Origin: Alkalihalobacillus alcalophilus ATCC 27647 = CGMCC 1.3604
GTDB taxonomy: Bacteria; Bacillota; Bacilli; Bacillales; Bacillaceae_D
Length of the DNA: 24,522 nucleotides
Assembly (NCBI RefSeq): GCF_000292245.2
Contig: NZ_ALPT02000060.1
Span: 1 to 24,522, forward strand
Direction: 5' to 3'
Below are positions 3,761 through 24,240 of the stretch, piece after piece. The position numbers were made by a program, and so were the translations under genes. Below the pieces are notes generated by a model. That model did not search any database. It worked only from the letters and a program-made list of their open reading frames with translations, and had not been told where the DNA came from. The stretch's first letter is position 1, and the number at the start of each line of letters is the position of its first letter.

Positions 3761-4075
3761 TTATAAACTTAACTTTCTCAGCGTATGATTGACCCTTAAC
3801 CGTTGATAGAGATTGACTTTACATGAACGGTTCAATCGTTGACAATCTGAACACATCTCTTCGTAGGCTGTTGAAGGAAACTGTGCACTAAAATTAAGAG
3901 CTTCGGCCGTCGCTACCAAAACCATACTCCGCGTCCTGCGGGAACCTGGCGAGCCTCCTCGGCAAGCCTTGCGGGGTCTCGCTCCACGGTTTATTCCCGC
4001 GGGAGTCTCCGTATGGTTTTGTCCGCTAAGTGTCGTGGAGAGGCTTGATGATATGGCCATTCTCAATCAGCTATT
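3761..4075 (-). repeat. Left arm of the foldback: diverged copy of a ~300-bp element with a GC-rich hairpin core (3917..4021)
   Basis: The reverse complement aligns along its length with 4280..4587. The termini match: TTATAAACTTAACTTTC versus the reverse complement of GAAAGTTGAGTTATAAA. The core is AGCGGACAAAACCATACGGAGACTCCCGCGGGAATAAACCG... Confidence 0.75.
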
Positions 4076-4279
4076 TCTAACGCAGAAGGACCTTCTTCTT
4101 CACTTTGTTGGTTATGGAACTAAATAGGGAGTTGCCACCCATCTTTTTCCTAAGTCTGCAGTCATGAAAAGACATGATTCAAATCGAAACCAGCTCGACC
4201 ATCTAGCTAACCTACAGAGCATCAACACGGATTTGTTTACAACTGCAACGGAATGAGTCATGGAAGGAGAAAACCGAAC

Positions 4280-4587
4280 CTAGATTCGATTCTATTATCA
4301 AGCGGACAAACAGACACGGAGACTCCCACAGGAATAAACCGTCCAATGAGACCCCGCAAGCGTGCTGAGGAGGCTCATGAGGTTCTCGGCAAGGACGCGG
4401 AGTGTCTGTTTGGGAGCGACAGCCGAAGAAGAGCATTGTCTATTTTTTCTTACTGCACAGTTTATCCGTTTTGTGTGATAGTACGTTCTCGCTTTTCAAA
4501 CGTGTTAAGGGCATTTATTTAAGAGCTTCTCTTTCGCTCTGCCAACTAGTTGAACGGTTTTTCTCGATGCGAAAGTTGAGTTATAAA
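4280..4587 (+). repeat. Right arm of the foldback: second copy of the same element (hairpin core 4307..4412)
   Basis: AGCGGACAAACAGACACGGAGACTCCCACAGGAATAAACCG...GTGTCTGTTTGGGAGCGACAGCCGAAG aligns with the reverse complement of 3899..4030. By hand alignment it is roughly three-quarters to four-fifths identical. Confidence 0.75.
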
Positions 4588-6550: not shown

Positions 6551-6680
6551 AAAGAAGAGTGGAAGGAAGCGGTCAGGAACGAGGAAAAATTAGAACAGCC
6601 TTGGAAGTCGCTCTTTGACTTCCCAAGGATGGACGATTTTTCCTGAGTTCCTGCTGACTGCAGCTCGACAAAGAAAAGCG
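6551..6680 (+). repeat. 130-nt structured intergenic repeat, copy 1 (nested hairpin 6572..6658)
   Basis: It aligns without gaps to 24111..24240, with 116 of 130 positions identical by hand count. Outer stem: GTCAGGAACGAGGAAAAAT / ATTTTTCCTGAGTTCCTGCTGAC. Inner stem: CCTTGGAAGTC / GACTTCCCAAGG. Confidence 0.8.
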
Positions 6681-6737: not shown

Positions 6738-8167
<1,430 letters not shown>

Positions 8168-10917: not shown

Positions 10918-12933
<2,016 letters not shown>

Positions 12934-12950: not shown

Positions 12951-13243
12951 ACAAAAAGCCCTCATCCAACATGGGACGAGAGCGTTTCTCACGTGGTACC
13001 ACCCAATTTCCCCTTTTCAAAAATCAAAAGGGCTCAATAAGTCATTTGACAATCTGTTAACGCCAGCTACGTCACACCCTTATGCCTTTTATGAGACACT
13101 CGAATGTAAGTTCCTCCCGAGACCATCTTCTAACGCTGATTTATACCGGTTTTCAGCTCCCCCGGCTCTCTGCACGCAATAACTGCTTATAAATCTAGGC
13201 ATTGTACTCATCTCTTCATCGGAATCCTATATAAATCCATCTT
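12951..13243 (-). promoter_or_regulatory. T-box leader (tRNA-Met-sensing transcription attenuator) of metG
   Basis: Minus strand: Stem I elements CGATGAAGAGATGAGTA and AGAGAGCC...GCTGAAAACCGG. The candidate specifier is AUG at 13126..13124 (GAAG-AUG-G). The T-box sequence AATTGGGTGGTACCACGTG is at 13008..12990. The terminator hairpin CTCGTCCC..GGATGAGGG (12982..12959) is followed by CTTTTTGT. Confidence 0.85.
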
Positions 13244-13249
13244 TCCATA

Positions 13250-13278
13250 ATTGTACCCAAAATATACCTAACAATCAA
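13250..13278 (-). promoter_or_regulatory. sigma-A promoter of the metG T-box leader
   Basis: Minus strand: TTGATT (13278..13273), 17 nt, TACAAT (13255..13250), just upstream of Stem I. Confidence 0.55.
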
Positions 13279-13333
13279 TCAGGGAATACTGAATAATCAA
13301 TGATAAGATTCAACCAATTTTCATTCATAAGAG

Positions 13334-13799
13334 ATTGGTAATGTAATTTTTACTTTCTCTCCATTACGGTGCGTATTATCCAGGATTGGTAATGTAATTT
13401 TTACTTTCTCTCTTTTTCGGTGCGTATTATCCTCAATTGGTAATGTAATCTTCCCTTGCTCCCTTTTTCGGTGCGTATTATCCAGGATTGGTAATGTAAT
13501 TTTTACTTTCTCTCCATTACGGTGCGTATTATCCTCAATTGGTAATGTAAATTTCCCTTGCTCTCTTTTTCGGTGCGTATTATCCGCAATTGGTAATGTA
13601 ATTTTTACTTTCTCTCCATTACGGTGCGTATTATCCAGGATTGGTAATGTAATTTTTACTTTCTCTCTTTTTCGGTGCGTATTATCCGCAATTGGTAACG
13701 TAATCTTCCCTTTCTCTCCATTACGGTGCGTATTATCCTCAATTGGTAATGTAATCTTCTCTTTCCCCCTTTTACGGTGCGTATTAACCGTGATTGGTC
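13334..13799. repeat. Tandem array: 9 complete copies plus one decayed start of a 51-bp unit
   Basis: Units start at 13334, 13385, 13436, 13487, 13538, 13589, 13640, 13691 and 13742 (decayed start 13793), in exact 51-nt phase. The invariant blocks are ATTGGTAATGTAA and CGGTGCGTATTATCC. The 20-nt middle segment occurs in three recurring versions. The last 3 nt are AGG, TCA or GCA. Confidence 0.97.
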
Positions 13800-13832
13800 A
13801 TACTCACCTGCTCTTAAATGGGTTTTTGACAA

Positions 13833-13880
13833 GAAAAAATAAGCATTTGCTCCAATGTTTTTCAAAAGGCAAATGCTTAT
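13833..13880 (-). terminator. rho-independent terminator of the nurA-herA operon
   Basis: Perfect 12-bp stem ATAAGCATTTGC (13839..13850) / GCAAATGCTTAT (13869..13880). It is followed on the minus strand by TTTTTTCTTG. The loop is rather large (18 nt). Confidence 0.7.
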
Positions 13881-13919
13881 CCAGTTCAGTTCATCTAAAA
13901 ACCTCTTTAATAAAAACGG

Positions 13920-15752
13920 TCAAGGGCGATCATAAATATGAGCAAATGGTGTTTTGTTTTCCTTTAAATGCCCTTCTACACTTAAACTTTTGAGCTTGTT
14001 TTTCCATTCCTTCACGTCCCATGATTTGGATGTTTTTTGATTAAGCTCAGATAGCTGATTCATAAGTTGAATTTCAGTTAATGGAAGAAAGTCATCTAAT
14101 GCTTCCATTAAACTCTCCGTATCCGTTTCTTTCATTTCATTTAACTCATCAAAGGGGTTCAAAGTATGTGGACTTGAAGAATGGGCAAGGCGTATCCGAA
14201 CCGCCATCGTCCGCCCAATAATAGCTGAAGATACAAAAACATCACCAGAGCGTAAGTACGGGAGTCGTTTACCTTCCTCAGCCGTTAAATCGGTTTCTTC
14301 CTTGATTGTCTGAATATCGGTCCCACGAACCGTTCGAAAGACAAACTTAGAATTAAGCTGTGCCGTAATCGTTTCATCTAATAGAGTCGGTCTTTGTGTC
14401 GCAAAAATCAAAAATACCCCATATTTCCGCCCTTCTTGAGCAATTTCTTTTAATACAGACTTAGCAGGCGACTCATAGCCTTTAGGGGCAAAATTATGAG
14501 CCTCATCTGTTACAATTACAAACGGTGGGAAAAACTCACCTTGCTGTTGCTGTAACCTTGCATCTTTATATGTGCGACGCTTCCCGTACAAGGACCCAAT
14601 TACATAACTTGAAAAAACTTGCAAGAGCCAGACTGCTCCTTGTACAACAACCAATTGCCCGGCATGGATTCCTTGCTCAATCGCTCGAATATTATGTTGG
14701 AAAAGCCCGGCCTGATATAGGCGATTCATTCGCCATTGAATCCCCTTCACAGAAGAGAGCGGCAAACTACCATATTGGTCTAAGAGCTTTTTAAATGTAT
14801 TATATCGTTGGAGTTCATCTCTTGTCATTCCACCATCATTTAAGATCGACTCAAGTTTCTGTTTGCCAAGCTCAATTGCCTCTGCTAGATTGGCGGTACG
14901 ATCACTAAAAGATTGATAACTATCTTTACGTTTATGCACAGACTGAATGACATTAATCATTGATTCTGTTAATGCTCCTGATGCAGCAAGCAAACGCTCC
15001 ACATCACGTGTTGACAACGCTGAGAAATCGACCCCGACATCACGACCAATTTGCACAACCATATAACGTTGCTTATAGTTTGGCACAGTTCCAACCCCAT
15101 CTGTTTGAACGGAAAAATCCATTTCAAAATGTGGGTCAAACACAAGCGTTGGAATTTGTAATTTCATAAGTTCCTCTAACATGACACGTAATCCAAAAGA
15201 CTTCCCTGAACCCGATCCACCAAATACACCAATATGTGGATATTGTTGCATCGCTCGAATATCAAATATAAATGGAATCCCTTGTTGCTGCCTTTTTATA
15301 TCATTTTCTTGGATCGACACAAGCCCTTGTAAATCCTCTGGTAGCGTCTCAGCAACATAATCAGTTGACTTCACTTCGCCTAAAACCATGCCTTTTTTAG
15401 CTGTTGTTGTCACTAGTAATGATTCAATCTCATAAAACTCAGGGTGTCTCACATGAGCCCCTGTTTGTAATGGCTGAATCGCCTCTTCAAACAAACGAAC
15501 CTTAGCCAAATGAATATCATCGGCACCGATATCATAACCAATATGCTCAAGCGTTTTTAATACTTGATCATCTACTAATCCTTTATCAAACCCCATGGGA
15601 ATGTAACGATTATAGGAAAATGTTTCGACAACCTCTCCTTTTGGTTGATTGAGATGGTCATCTTCAATGACAACCATTTCATTCATTCGAAACTTATGTT
15701 CTTTTGAAGCGACATACACTTCATGCTGGGTTGTAACACCAACAACTTGCAT
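13920..15752 (-). CDS. herA: HerA-like (DUF87 / FtsK-HerA superfamily) hexameric ATPase-translocase
   Basis: 610 aa. The N-terminal HAS-barrel-like region is MQVVGVTT..VYV...FRMNEMVVIED. Walker A is GGSGSGKS (178-185) and Walker B is FVIVTDEAHNF (DE 416-417). ATQRPTLLDETITAQLNSKFVFR is the typical HerA sensor/Arg-finger block. ATG 15752 follows the SD AAGGGGGATGA, 14 nt after the nurA stop. Confidence 0.85.
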   Translation of the reverse strand: MQVVGVTTQHEVYVASKEHKFRMNEMVVIEDDHLNQPKGEVVETFSYNRYIPMGFDKGLVDDQVLKTLEHIGYDIGADDIHLAKVRLFEEAIQPLQTGAHVRHPEFYEIESLLVTTTAKKGMVLGEVKSTDYVAETLPEDLQGLVSIQENDIKRQQQGIPFIFDIRAMQQYPHIGVFGGSGSGKSFGLRVMLEELMKLQIPTLVFDPHFEMDFSVQTDGVGTVPNYKQRYMVVQIGRDVGVDFSALSTRDVERLLAASGALTESMINVIQSVHKRKDSYQSFSDRTANLAEAIELGKQKLESILNDGGMTRDELQRYNTFKKLLDQYGSLPLSSVKGIQWRMNRLYQAGLFQHNIRAIEQGIHAGQLVVVQGAVWLLQVFSSYVIGSLYGKRRTYKDARLQQQQGEFFPPFVIVTDEAHNFAPKGYESPAKSVLKEIAQEGRKYGVFLIFATQRPTLLDETITAQLNSKFVFRTVRGTDIQTIKEETDLTAEEGKRLPYLRSGDVFVSSAIIGRTMAVRIRLAHSSSPHTLNPFDELNEMKETDTESLMEALDDFLPLTEIQLMNQLSELNQKTSKSWDVKEWKNKLKSLSVEGHLKENKTPFAHIYDRP

Positions 15753-15766
15753 CCTTTCATCCCCCT

Positions 15767-16789
15767 TTAATATGGTCTTCCTTCTCTTTTTTTACTTAAA
15801 AATCGCTGTTTCAATTCTGGGTCAATATATTGTTCAACTAAGGCCTCGACTAGTTTATCGGTTACCCGCACTTCTCGGTCAATATGATCAAGCCAAAAAG
15901 GAATCCCTCTCCCATTTTTAGGAGTTAAGGTCGCTAATAGACGCGACATTTCCCATTTGTGCTCCGCTTGTTCATCCAACATATCAAACCCCGTTATTTG
16001 AGGGTCTGCCCCTAACCTCATCCAAACGGATTGCAAACCGGCTTTATGTTGGATTTCTTCTATATAAATAGCTTCTCCCTGATGAAGAACCCCAAAAAGC
16101 AAATCGCGATCATATGTATAACCACTTTGCTTCAACGATTGAAACGCTTCAAGGCGAACTAAATTGCTAGTCGTAATCTCTTCTGAGACGCCAACGAGGA
16201 AGACACGCTCAGCTAATGCCTTCTCTTTTAGTTTTTCCCACTCTAACGGAGCATCAATCCGGTAATGATAAAGAGCTCCATCCATCATTAATACTTTCAA
16301 ATTCTGTTCCTCTATTAATTGATAGGCAGCAGTCAGTTCTTGTTTAGCTAGTAGATGCGAGCGTTTCTTTTTCGAATCTTCTCTTTCCTCCTCTTCCGTC
16401 CTTTCATCATCTAATAAGGGAAAATAAACATCCGAAACAAAACATTCATAACCAGTCGTCGTTTTAGCGAGTGCTTGGAAAAAATAAATAAGATGTGGTG
16501 GCTCACCTTTCGTTTGATTAACCGATCCATCTACAGCACCTAACAATCCACCGCCTAGCCAAATACTTAAAGATTCGTTGTCGAATGTTGGTATTTGTCG
16601 AATATCAACATCTGATTCACTCATTTTTTGTCGAATACTATATTTATCTATATTAGTAGACTTATATTTTTGTCGAAATGATAGGTTCACTTTCTTTATC
16701 TTATCTAAAAAGTCTTGGTTAATTTTTAACAATTTTACCCAACCCCTCACTATGAAAATACTTATATATAAAGGTTTTTTTACGCTCAC
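15767..16789 (-). CDS. nurA: NurA-like 5'-3' nuclease (RNase H-like fold), partner of HerA
   Basis: NurA motif order is present: AVDGS (D87), KQELTAA (E151), LMMDGAL (D170), VGVSEEITTS (GVSKxS-like) and GIPFWLDHIDREV (D301/H302/D304). The track start GTG 16789 has no SD. TTG 16732, 10 nt after GAGGGG, is more likely and gives 321 aa. Confidence 0.75.
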   Translation of the reverse strand: MSVKKPLYISIFIVRGWVKLLKINQDFLDKIKKVNLSFRQKYKSTNIDKYSIRQKMSESDVDIRQIPTFDNESLSIWLGGGLLGAVDGSVNQTKGEPPHLIYFFQALAKTTTGYECFVSDVYFPLLDDERTEEEEREDSKKKRSHLLAKQELTAAYQLIEEQNLKVLMMDGALYHYRIDAPLEWEKLKEKALAERVFLVGVSEEITTSNLVRLEAFQSLKQSGYTYDRDLLFGVLHQGEAIYIEEIQHKAGLQSVWMRLGADPQITGFDMLDEQAEHKWEMSRLLATLTPKNGRGIPFWLDHIDREVRVTDKLVEALVEQYIDPELKQRFLSKKREGRPY

Positions 16790-24110: not shown

Positions 24111-24240
24111 AAAGAAAAGTGGAGGGAGGCGTTTAGGAACGAGGAAAAATTAGAACAGCCGTGGAAGTCGCTTTTTGACTTCCTAAGGATGGGCGATTTT
24201 TCCCGAGTTCCTGCTGACCGCAACTAGACATAGAAAAGCG
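24111..24240 (+). repeat. 130-nt structured intergenic repeat, copy 2 (hairpin about 24131..24218)
   Basis: Ungapped alignment to 6551..6680, in the same orientation, with the same nested stems (GGAACGAGGAAAAAT / ATTTTTCCCGAGTTCC; CCGTGGAAGTC / GACTTCCTAAGG). Confidence 0.8.

Follow-up and report, generated by a model that had tools for sequence, protein, structure and literature searches.

We analyzed a 24,522-nucleotide stretch of Alkalihalobacillus alcalophilus ATCC 27647 (contig NZ_ALPT02000060.1; "the window" below), in which the spacer between a herA-like gene and metS contains an array of 51-bp tandem repeats. All of the genes at this locus lie on the minus strand; nurA and herA come first in the direction of transcription and are followed by an intrinsic terminator, the array, a unique stretch of 55 nt, a promoter, a T-box leader, the T-box terminator, and metS (Table 1). 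The array had been picked out in an initial annotation of the window, and we examined its structure, its distribution, and the functions that it might have.

Results

Structure of the Array

Nine copies of the 51-bp repeat, in phase and without indels, had been proposed for the herA-metS spacer, and this description was confirmed. Tandem Repeats Finder (TRF) placed the array at 13334-13786/13798, with periods of 51, 102, and 153, scores of 619–722, and 0% indels, and a listing of the units gave nine starts, one per 51 nt, from 13334 to 13742. The listing also confirmed a decayed tenth start, ATTGGTCAT, at 13793, beyond which all similarity is lost. On the plus strand, each unit consists of ATTGGTAATGTAA, 20 variable pyrimidine-rich nucleotides, CGGTGCGTATTATCC, and three further variable nucleotides. 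The pattern CGGTGCGTATTANCCNNNATTGGTNA, which spans the junction, occurs nine times in the window, every time inside the array; when up to three mismatches were allowed, it was found in none of 100 shuffled sequences, as against the nine occurrences observed. A pattern search likewise bore out the earlier statement that the conserved blocks occur nowhere else in the window, and the array lies where it had been placed with respect to both the herA terminator and the metS promoter (55 nt separate it from the -35 hexamer).

The independent assembly GCA_036211745.1 carries an identical array, and in two short-read assemblies the contigs end inside the array with the correct units at their edges. 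Because of this agreement, the array is not an assembly artefact. The A. alcalophilus assemblies that span the array are identical, with nine copies, and the remaining assemblies break within it.

Variation among the Units

Fifteen of the 51 columns of the unit are variable, and in 11 of these a variant is common to at least two units, always at columns 15–33 or 49–51. Columns 1–13 contain a single change (T9C in unit 8), as do columns 34–48 (T46A in unit 9), and columns 14–33 and 49–51 account for 43 of the 45 minor-allele counts. Columns 49–51 read AGG in three units, TCA in three, GCA in two, and GTG in one. The conserved parts form one nearly invariant 31-bp module, CGGTGCGTATTATCC-NNN-ATTGGTAATGTAA, set apart by the 20-nt tract. 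The clustering of the variable columns was assessed in two ways: the two largest gaps gave p = 0.02 when only shared polymorphisms were considered and p = 0.09 when every variable column was included, and the longest invariant run on its own gave p = 0.15–0.19. The clustering is therefore modestly significant, which is suggestive but not compelling. Changes of the type T>C or A>G make up 22 of the 45, the low-complexity tract contains almost every change, and the contrast between module and tract could equally reflect faster mutation in a low-complexity purine/pyrimidine tract.

The initial annotation recognized three versions of positions 14–33. Two of them do recur (three units, 1, 4, and 6, have version A, and two units, 2 and 7, have version B; these versions differ at 3 of the 20 positions of the variable tract), but the remaining units, 3, 5, 8, and 9, are four distinct mosaics, so that the earlier description is right only in part. 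Adjacent units are the least similar to each other, with a mean of 8.4 differences. Unit 1 is repeated exactly as unit 6, and unit 2 recurs as unit 7 with one base changed, so that the block formed by units 1 and 2 differs from that formed by units 6 and 7 at a single position in 102 nt, which points to a recent duplication or conversion of 102 bp. All four combinations of alleles are present for columns 15 and 29 and for columns 29 and 49–51, and these four-gamete patterns require either recombination or recurrent mutation. Taken with the repeated pairs of units, they support the earlier proposal that the interleaving of the versions results from recombination or conversion within the array. 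Unit 9, at the herA-proximal edge and next to the decayed stub, is the most diverged of the full units (7–11 differences from the others in 51 positions). A diverged edge unit followed by a decayed stub is the usual picture in arrays that are homogenized by unequal exchange. Head-to-tail copies in excess of chance, together with the signs of unequal exchange or conversion among the units, give the array two of the characteristics of a minisatellite.

Distribution of the Array

We compared the herA-metS locus in nine species: A. alcalophilus, 1P02AB, FJAT-45037, A. pseudofirmus, A. trypoxylicola, H. urbisdiaboli, LL01, H. krulwichiae, and H. halodurans. The order abrB-nurA-herA-metS was kept in all nine of these alkaliphilic Bacillaceae, and the 51-bp array was found in none of the other eight syntenic species. 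HerA homologues are 72–82% identical across the alkaliphilic Bacillaceae and about 60% identical in the Thermoactinomycetaceae. Because synteny extends to all nine species, nurA-herA must be old and vertically inherited in the clade and not a recent insertion. This refutes the suggestion that the array arrived with an insertion of nurA-herA, since the gene order is general and the array is not. The array most likely has no tie to the two genes.

The absence extends to the sister species 1P02AB (Alkalihalobacillus sp.), in which herA, nurA, and metS have 92–94% DNA identity to those of A. alcalophilus, and the promoter and T-box region has 90.5%. At the site of the array, A. alcalophilus has 605 nt of filler and 1P02AB has 331 nt, and the two cannot be aligned (37% identity). 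The 1P02AB filler (6836-7166 in our locus record L007) is unrelated in sequence and includes the GC-rich stretch GGAGCGAGGAGGCTCCCGATTCACCCGCGGAACGCGTAGGGCATGC; it gave no Rfam match at the gathering score and contains no convincing open reading frame (ORF).

We then searched for the unit elsewhere. It had no match in two exact-pattern scans of GTDB (one genome per species), in two scans of IMG/VR, or in blastn searches of phages and plasmids. A scan of JGI metagenomes returned two single matches, both within coding sequence and with no tandem repeat at or near them; these are chance hits. The scans of the unit needed exact matching or about 65% identity or more, and diverged relatives could escape them. 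No further copy that would indicate a dispersed family of the MIRU (mycobacterial interspersed repetitive unit) or REP-like kind was found in the window or, by exact patterns, in the GTDB representative genomes. To look for a source of the unit, we aligned three units locally with the flanks, the remainder of the window, and the corresponding loci of the relatives; the scores were no better than those of shuffled queries. A literature search for "Bacillus alcalophilus" with "tandem repeat" found nothing relevant.

Genes and Signals around the Array

The features of the locus are collected in Table 1. HerA and MetS as encoded in the window match exactly the proteins of A. alcalophilus ATCC 27647 (WP_003320841 and WP_003320862). 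The metS T-box leader scored 92.1 bits, against an Rfam gathering score of 93, and was missed by the default scan. The predicted leader is clearly real despite this score, because the orthologous leaders of 1P02AB (98.3 bits) and H. urbisdiaboli (94.5 bits) are above the gathering score. As far as the arrangement of signals can tell, the DNA of the array, which lies between the terminator and the promoter, is probably not transcribed.

Table 1. Features of the nurA-herA-metS locus (coordinates in the window)
Feature	Coordinates	Strand	Evidence
nurA-like nuclease gene	15767..16789	-	Pfam NurA, E 3e-30
herA-like ATPase gene (upstream neighbour)	13920..15752	-	Pfam DUF87/HerA; homologues; WP_003320841
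Lineage-specific filler (herA terminator and array), from herA stop to sequence shared with 1P02AB	13313..13917	.	Alignment with 1P02AB locus
nurA-herA intrinsic terminator (12-bp perfect stem, extended by folding, then U-run)	13839..13880	-	Inverted repeat; -21.6 kcal/mol, z -4.8
Decayed start of tenth unit, ATTGGTCAT (herA-proximal edge)	13793..13801	.	Unit listing
51-bp minisatellite proper (nine head-to-tail units)	13334..13792	.	TRF, unit listing, pattern count
Predicted metS promoter, TTGATT-17-TACAAT	13250..13278	-	Promoter search; same sequence in 1P02AB
metS T-box leader	12969..13228	-	Rfam RF00230, 92.1 bits, E 1.5e-20
Terminator stem of T-box leader	12958..12983	-	Same search as for metS promoter
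metS, methionine-tRNA ligase (downstream neighbour)	10918..12912	-	WP_003320862

History of the herA-metS Spacer

The distance between herA and metS varies widely among the nine species (308, 363, 378, 419, 452, 526, 731, 1008, and 3892 nt). In A. trypoxylicola, H. urbisdiaboli, and FJAT-45037, whose sequences we read directly, the metS promoter follows immediately after herA: the herA stop codon falls within the -35 hexamer (TTGACA or TTGACT), which is followed 17–18 nt downstream by TATATT. The ancestral layout was read from these three species; A. pseudofirmus aligns with the ancestral-type TTGAC...GGTATATT stretch. A. alcalophilus and 1P02AB have kept TTGACC at the herA stop codon and GGTATATTTTGG, with extra DNA in between. 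In the window, the old and new promoter sequences lie within 13250-13312 and 13917-13925, and the old -10 hexamer is TATATT. The two species share a new promoter, TTGATT-17-TACAAT, 11 nt further downstream.

From these alignments we infer that, in the common ancestor of A. alcalophilus and 1P02AB, DNA was inserted just past the old -35 hexamer and split the metS promoter, and that the replacement promoter 11 nt downstream then took over. The filler would afterwards have been replaced or remodelled, turning over completely between the two lineages. Expansion of the array would have taken place in the A. alcalophilus lineage only, in which the filler came to consist of the strong herA terminator and a 51-bp segment amplified to nine copies. 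To judge from what is known of tandem repeats, the amplification would have proceeded by replication slippage or by unequal exchange between sister strands. Continuing exchange and gene conversion within the array have produced the mosaic of units, the recent two-unit duplication, and the decayed edge unit. The sole probable effect of the array and terminator would be to space metS from nurA-herA and uncouple its transcription from theirs.

A second array occupies the same spacer in Halalkalibacter urbisdiaboli (GCA_002156385.1, MVJM01000006.1; 12195-15687 in our locus record L015), where a 55-bp unit is repeated 63.6 times with 98% identity over 3.5 kb. It resembles the A. alcalophilus array in its near-equal unit length, its strictly tandem arrangement, and its restriction to one species. 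The two differ in that the H. urbisdiaboli array sits in the 5' leader of metS, between the T-box terminator and the start codon, whereas that of A. alcalophilus is upstream of the promoter, and in that the H. urbisdiaboli unit is GC-rich, has AGGAGG in every copy, and is unrelated to the 51-bp unit. An ORF of 1080 aa called on the opposite strand across the H. urbisdiaboli array is almost certainly spurious. Elsewhere among the relatives, A. trypoxylicola has a 126-bp tandem repeat of two copies with 78% identity in its rsmI-abrB spacer (1170-1420 in our locus record L012).

Discussion

The array is probably a lineage-specific, non-coding minisatellite that arose by tandem amplification in a spacer of fast turnover, was reshuffled by exchange among its own units, and has no sequence-specific function. 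This interpretation follows from its restriction to one lineage, the minisatellite signature of its units, the lack of a product or structure, and the fluidity of the spacer in which it lies. The initial annotation preferred an array of binding sites, or a functional RNA or DNA module, to random slippage. We found no support for that preference: there is no partner gene, dyad, surviving motif, or RNA structure, and the pattern of blocks is only weakly non-random.

Three observations sit uneasily with a neutral minisatellite. The variation is mostly confined to 23 of the 51 columns, and the contiguous 31-bp module is near-invariant (two-gap p = 0.02), which could reflect constraint on a binding site. 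The mean divergence between units, about 14%, is near the divergence from 1P02AB at third codon positions (about 16–18%); the unit types are thus not all very young, yet the blocks are intact. Finally, the presence of arrays in one spacer of about 0.4 kb in two of the nine species is an unexplained coincidence. The herA-metS spacer may be prone to the birth of minisatellites, or the coincidence may be due to chance.

Several explanations would give the array a product. If transcripts of herA ran through their terminator into the array, or if a weak promoter at 13865-13836 were active, the array might act as a repeat-containing small RNA, a protein sponge, or an extended metS leader. Each unit has GGA and GGAG motifs in its purine-rich tract on the gene strand, and the site at 13865-13836 matches a promoter at 9 of 12 positions. 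However, a strong intrinsic terminator lies directly upstream, the four promoter-like matches found are as many as the 4.0 expected from shuffled sequences, and the promoter search found no such site within the units. The array has no Rfam match at the gathering score or at E values up to 1, and its fold is no better than that of shuffled sequences (for the gene strand z was -0.84, and for the opposite strand -1.27). The folds of the three unit versions are weak and differ from one another (-2 to -6 kcal/mol); inverted-repeat searches and folding upheld the earlier observation that they have no hairpin in common. We therefore consider a role as RNA very improbable. A present or former gene for a repeat protein is, if anything, less probable still, and has already been largely refuted. 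The unit length would correspond to a repeat of 17 residues (51 = 3 x 17; in frame -1, ITLPIxDNTHR(NG/KR)E(K/Q)(V/G)K), and two of the six frames, +0 and -1, are open through all nine units, but two open frames of six is about what chance would give for a unit of 17 codons. Neither open frame contains an ATG, GTG, or TTG start, no ORF is listed over the array, and the differences between units, as translated, nearly all change the amino acid. The repeat translations of both frames matched no Pfam family above the cut-off. Among 1.84 billion representatives, the -1 peptide matched only weak, unrelated repeat translations (E of 1e-9 or worse, 19–41% identity), the best of them at E 1e-9 and 29% identity, and the +0 peptide had no match among 5.8 billion proteins. 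An orphan CRISPR-like array (clustered regularly interspaced short palindromic repeats) of 31-bp repeats and 20-bp spacers was also considered, because CRISPR repeats can have the length of the module and the units are regularly spaced. It is refuted by the resemblance of the "spacers" to one another; at 20 nt, moreover, these are too short, the repeat has no hairpin, and none of the ORFs of at least 80 aa in the window remains to be considered as a cas gene, so that this possibility is negligible.

The remaining alternatives concern binding of a protein to the DNA itself. The nine 31-bp modules might be sites for a sequence-specific DNA-binding protein, arranged like iterons or a centromere, that nucleate or titrate the protein upstream of metS. 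We judge this unlikely, although it is the least unlikely of the alternatives. The module is near-invariant beside a variable 20-bp linker (p = 0.02), the spacing is strictly free of indels, and the DNA is intergenic and probably untranscribed. On the other hand, the neighbours are herA and metS, with no adjoining rep, par, or regulator gene, and neither a clear dyad nor an internal sub-repeat is present in the module. Pfam assigned only housekeeping families to the ORFs of the source contig that lie between holB and veg, and the other ORFs were judged to be housekeeping from conserved gene order. Because 1P02AB retains both the promoter and the T-box but lacks the array, no conserved feature depends on the array. 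The module was found nowhere else in the scans and has no plasmid, phage, or viral match. In a comparison by eye with consensus sequences, none of AbrB (bipartite TGGNA), Fur/Zur, cre, TnrA, Spo0A, parS, or RTP-Ter fitted the module. The spacing of the blocks had been described as about five helical turns, which is correct as an approximation, but 51 bp is 4.86 turns (51/10.5), so that successive sites rotate around the helix and do not share one face. The argument for a binding protein comes down to how sharply the conserved module is delimited. DnaA is a weak lead to the identity of such a protein. In this version the array would be a cluster of DnaA boxes near the origin that titrates DnaA, like datA or the B. 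subtilis DnaA-box clusters (DBCs), since TTATCC and the three variable bases of the unit (columns 43–51: TTATCC followed by AGG, TCA, GCA, or GTG) resemble the box TTATCCACA, in which the TRF consensus unit ends. We scored these 9-mers with the B. subtilis position-specific scoring matrix (PSSM) of Smith and Grossman (PMC4447404, S3 Table). Five units (TTATCCTCA and TTATCCGCA) pass the threshold of p <= 0.0015, with 7.5–7.75 bits against 13.65 for a perfect box, and four fail. The orthologous locus of H. halodurans is about 30 kb into its record, which would be origin-proximal only if the record starts near oriC. The box consensus is TTATNCACA, and the CACA core is lacking in all nine units; the variable bases correspond to box positions 7–9, the most stringently conserved in the PSSM (A 138/150, C 144/150, and A 135/150; PMC4447404). 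From the PSSM p-values, a random 51-bp unit has a chance of about 9% of containing an equally good 9-mer, and for B. subtilis one such box is predicted in roughly every 370 bp (PMC4447404). Moreover, the conserved sequence reaches far past the box, and the array is missing in eight syntenic relatives. A DnaA cluster is accordingly improbable. Also unlikely is a binding array that arose de novo, in which minisatellite expansion within one species would have made the nine 31-bp modules into phased sites that titrate or nucleate a DNA-binding protein, with the herA-metS spacer of alkaliphilic Bacillaceae perhaps a recurrent birthplace of such arrays (51 bp x 9; 55 bp x 64). DnaA, through the weak TTATCCNNN boxes, is the only candidate that we can name as the binder of such an array.

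Among known systems, close counterparts of the array are the intergenic minisatellites, or variable-number tandem repeat (VNTR) loci, of bacteria, such as the markers used in multiple-locus VNTR analysis (MLVA) of Bacillus anthracis. Like them, it consists of non-coding, in-phase, head-to-tail units of tens of base pairs, with unit variants shuffled by unequal exchange, a decayed edge unit, presence or absence between close relatives, and breaks in short-read assemblies. In practice, VNTRs are recognized by differences in copy number from strain to strain; here, only two assemblies span the array, and these are identical. The pattern of conserved and variable blocks is somewhat sharper than is typical of a VNTR. 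MIRUs are likewise tandem units, of about 51–77 bp and of a length divisible by 3, between co-directional genes. They occur at tens of loci per genome and contain small ORFs, which overlap with stop and start codons of the adjacent genes; the 51-bp unit, in contrast, was found at a single locus, where it is flanked by a terminator and a promoter. With plasmid centromeres and iteron arrays, the array shares a regular direct tandem of about ten long units in untranscribed DNA. The sopC centromere of F, for example, has 12 units of 43 bp, and such arrays adjoin par or rep genes and have an inverted-repeat binding site in each unit, whereas the array described here has no partner gene, dyad, or plasmid or phage relative. 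Clusters of DnaA boxes outside oriC (the B. subtilis DBCs [PMC3245932] and E. coli datA) are similar in being intergenic groups of DnaA-box-like 9-mers, possibly near the origin; theirs, however, are consensus or near-consensus boxes with irregular spacing and in both orientations, and those of the array are marginal and vary at positions 7–9.

As it stands, the array has little significance, and at most it is a marker for strain typing and a warning of breaks in short-read assemblies. The history of the spacer is of modest evolutionary interest: an insertion would have separated the metS promoter from a -35 hexamer that overlaps a stop codon, a replacement would have arisen 11 nt downstream, and the filler would have turned over fully between sister species. 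If the 31-bp module does bind a protein, this locus would offer a clear-cut case, found in nature, of repeat expansion giving rise to a regulatory or titration array.

Other Features of the Window

Two further repeats in the window are separate from the array. A large, GC-rich nested inverted repeat occupies 3901-4428, with arms at 3901-3937/4392-4428 and 3968-4027/4301-4360 that are 83–84% complementary. Its GC content is 0.46, against about 0.39 nearby. It has no Rfam match, and it could be an element like a miniature inverted-repeat transposable element (MITE) or otherwise structured. The second is a dispersed direct repeat of 130 nt, with 89% identity between its copies at 6551-6680 (in the ksgA-yabG spacer) and 24111-24240 (upstream of a lysine-decarboxylase-like gene), which contains the hairpin GGAAGTCAAAGAGCGACTTCC. 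A circularly permuted contig, CABMHA010000011.1, had suggested a 17.5-kb tandem duplication or circle. We rejected this as a mis-join via the 130-nt repeat, which runs through a 26-nt stretch that is identical in both copies.

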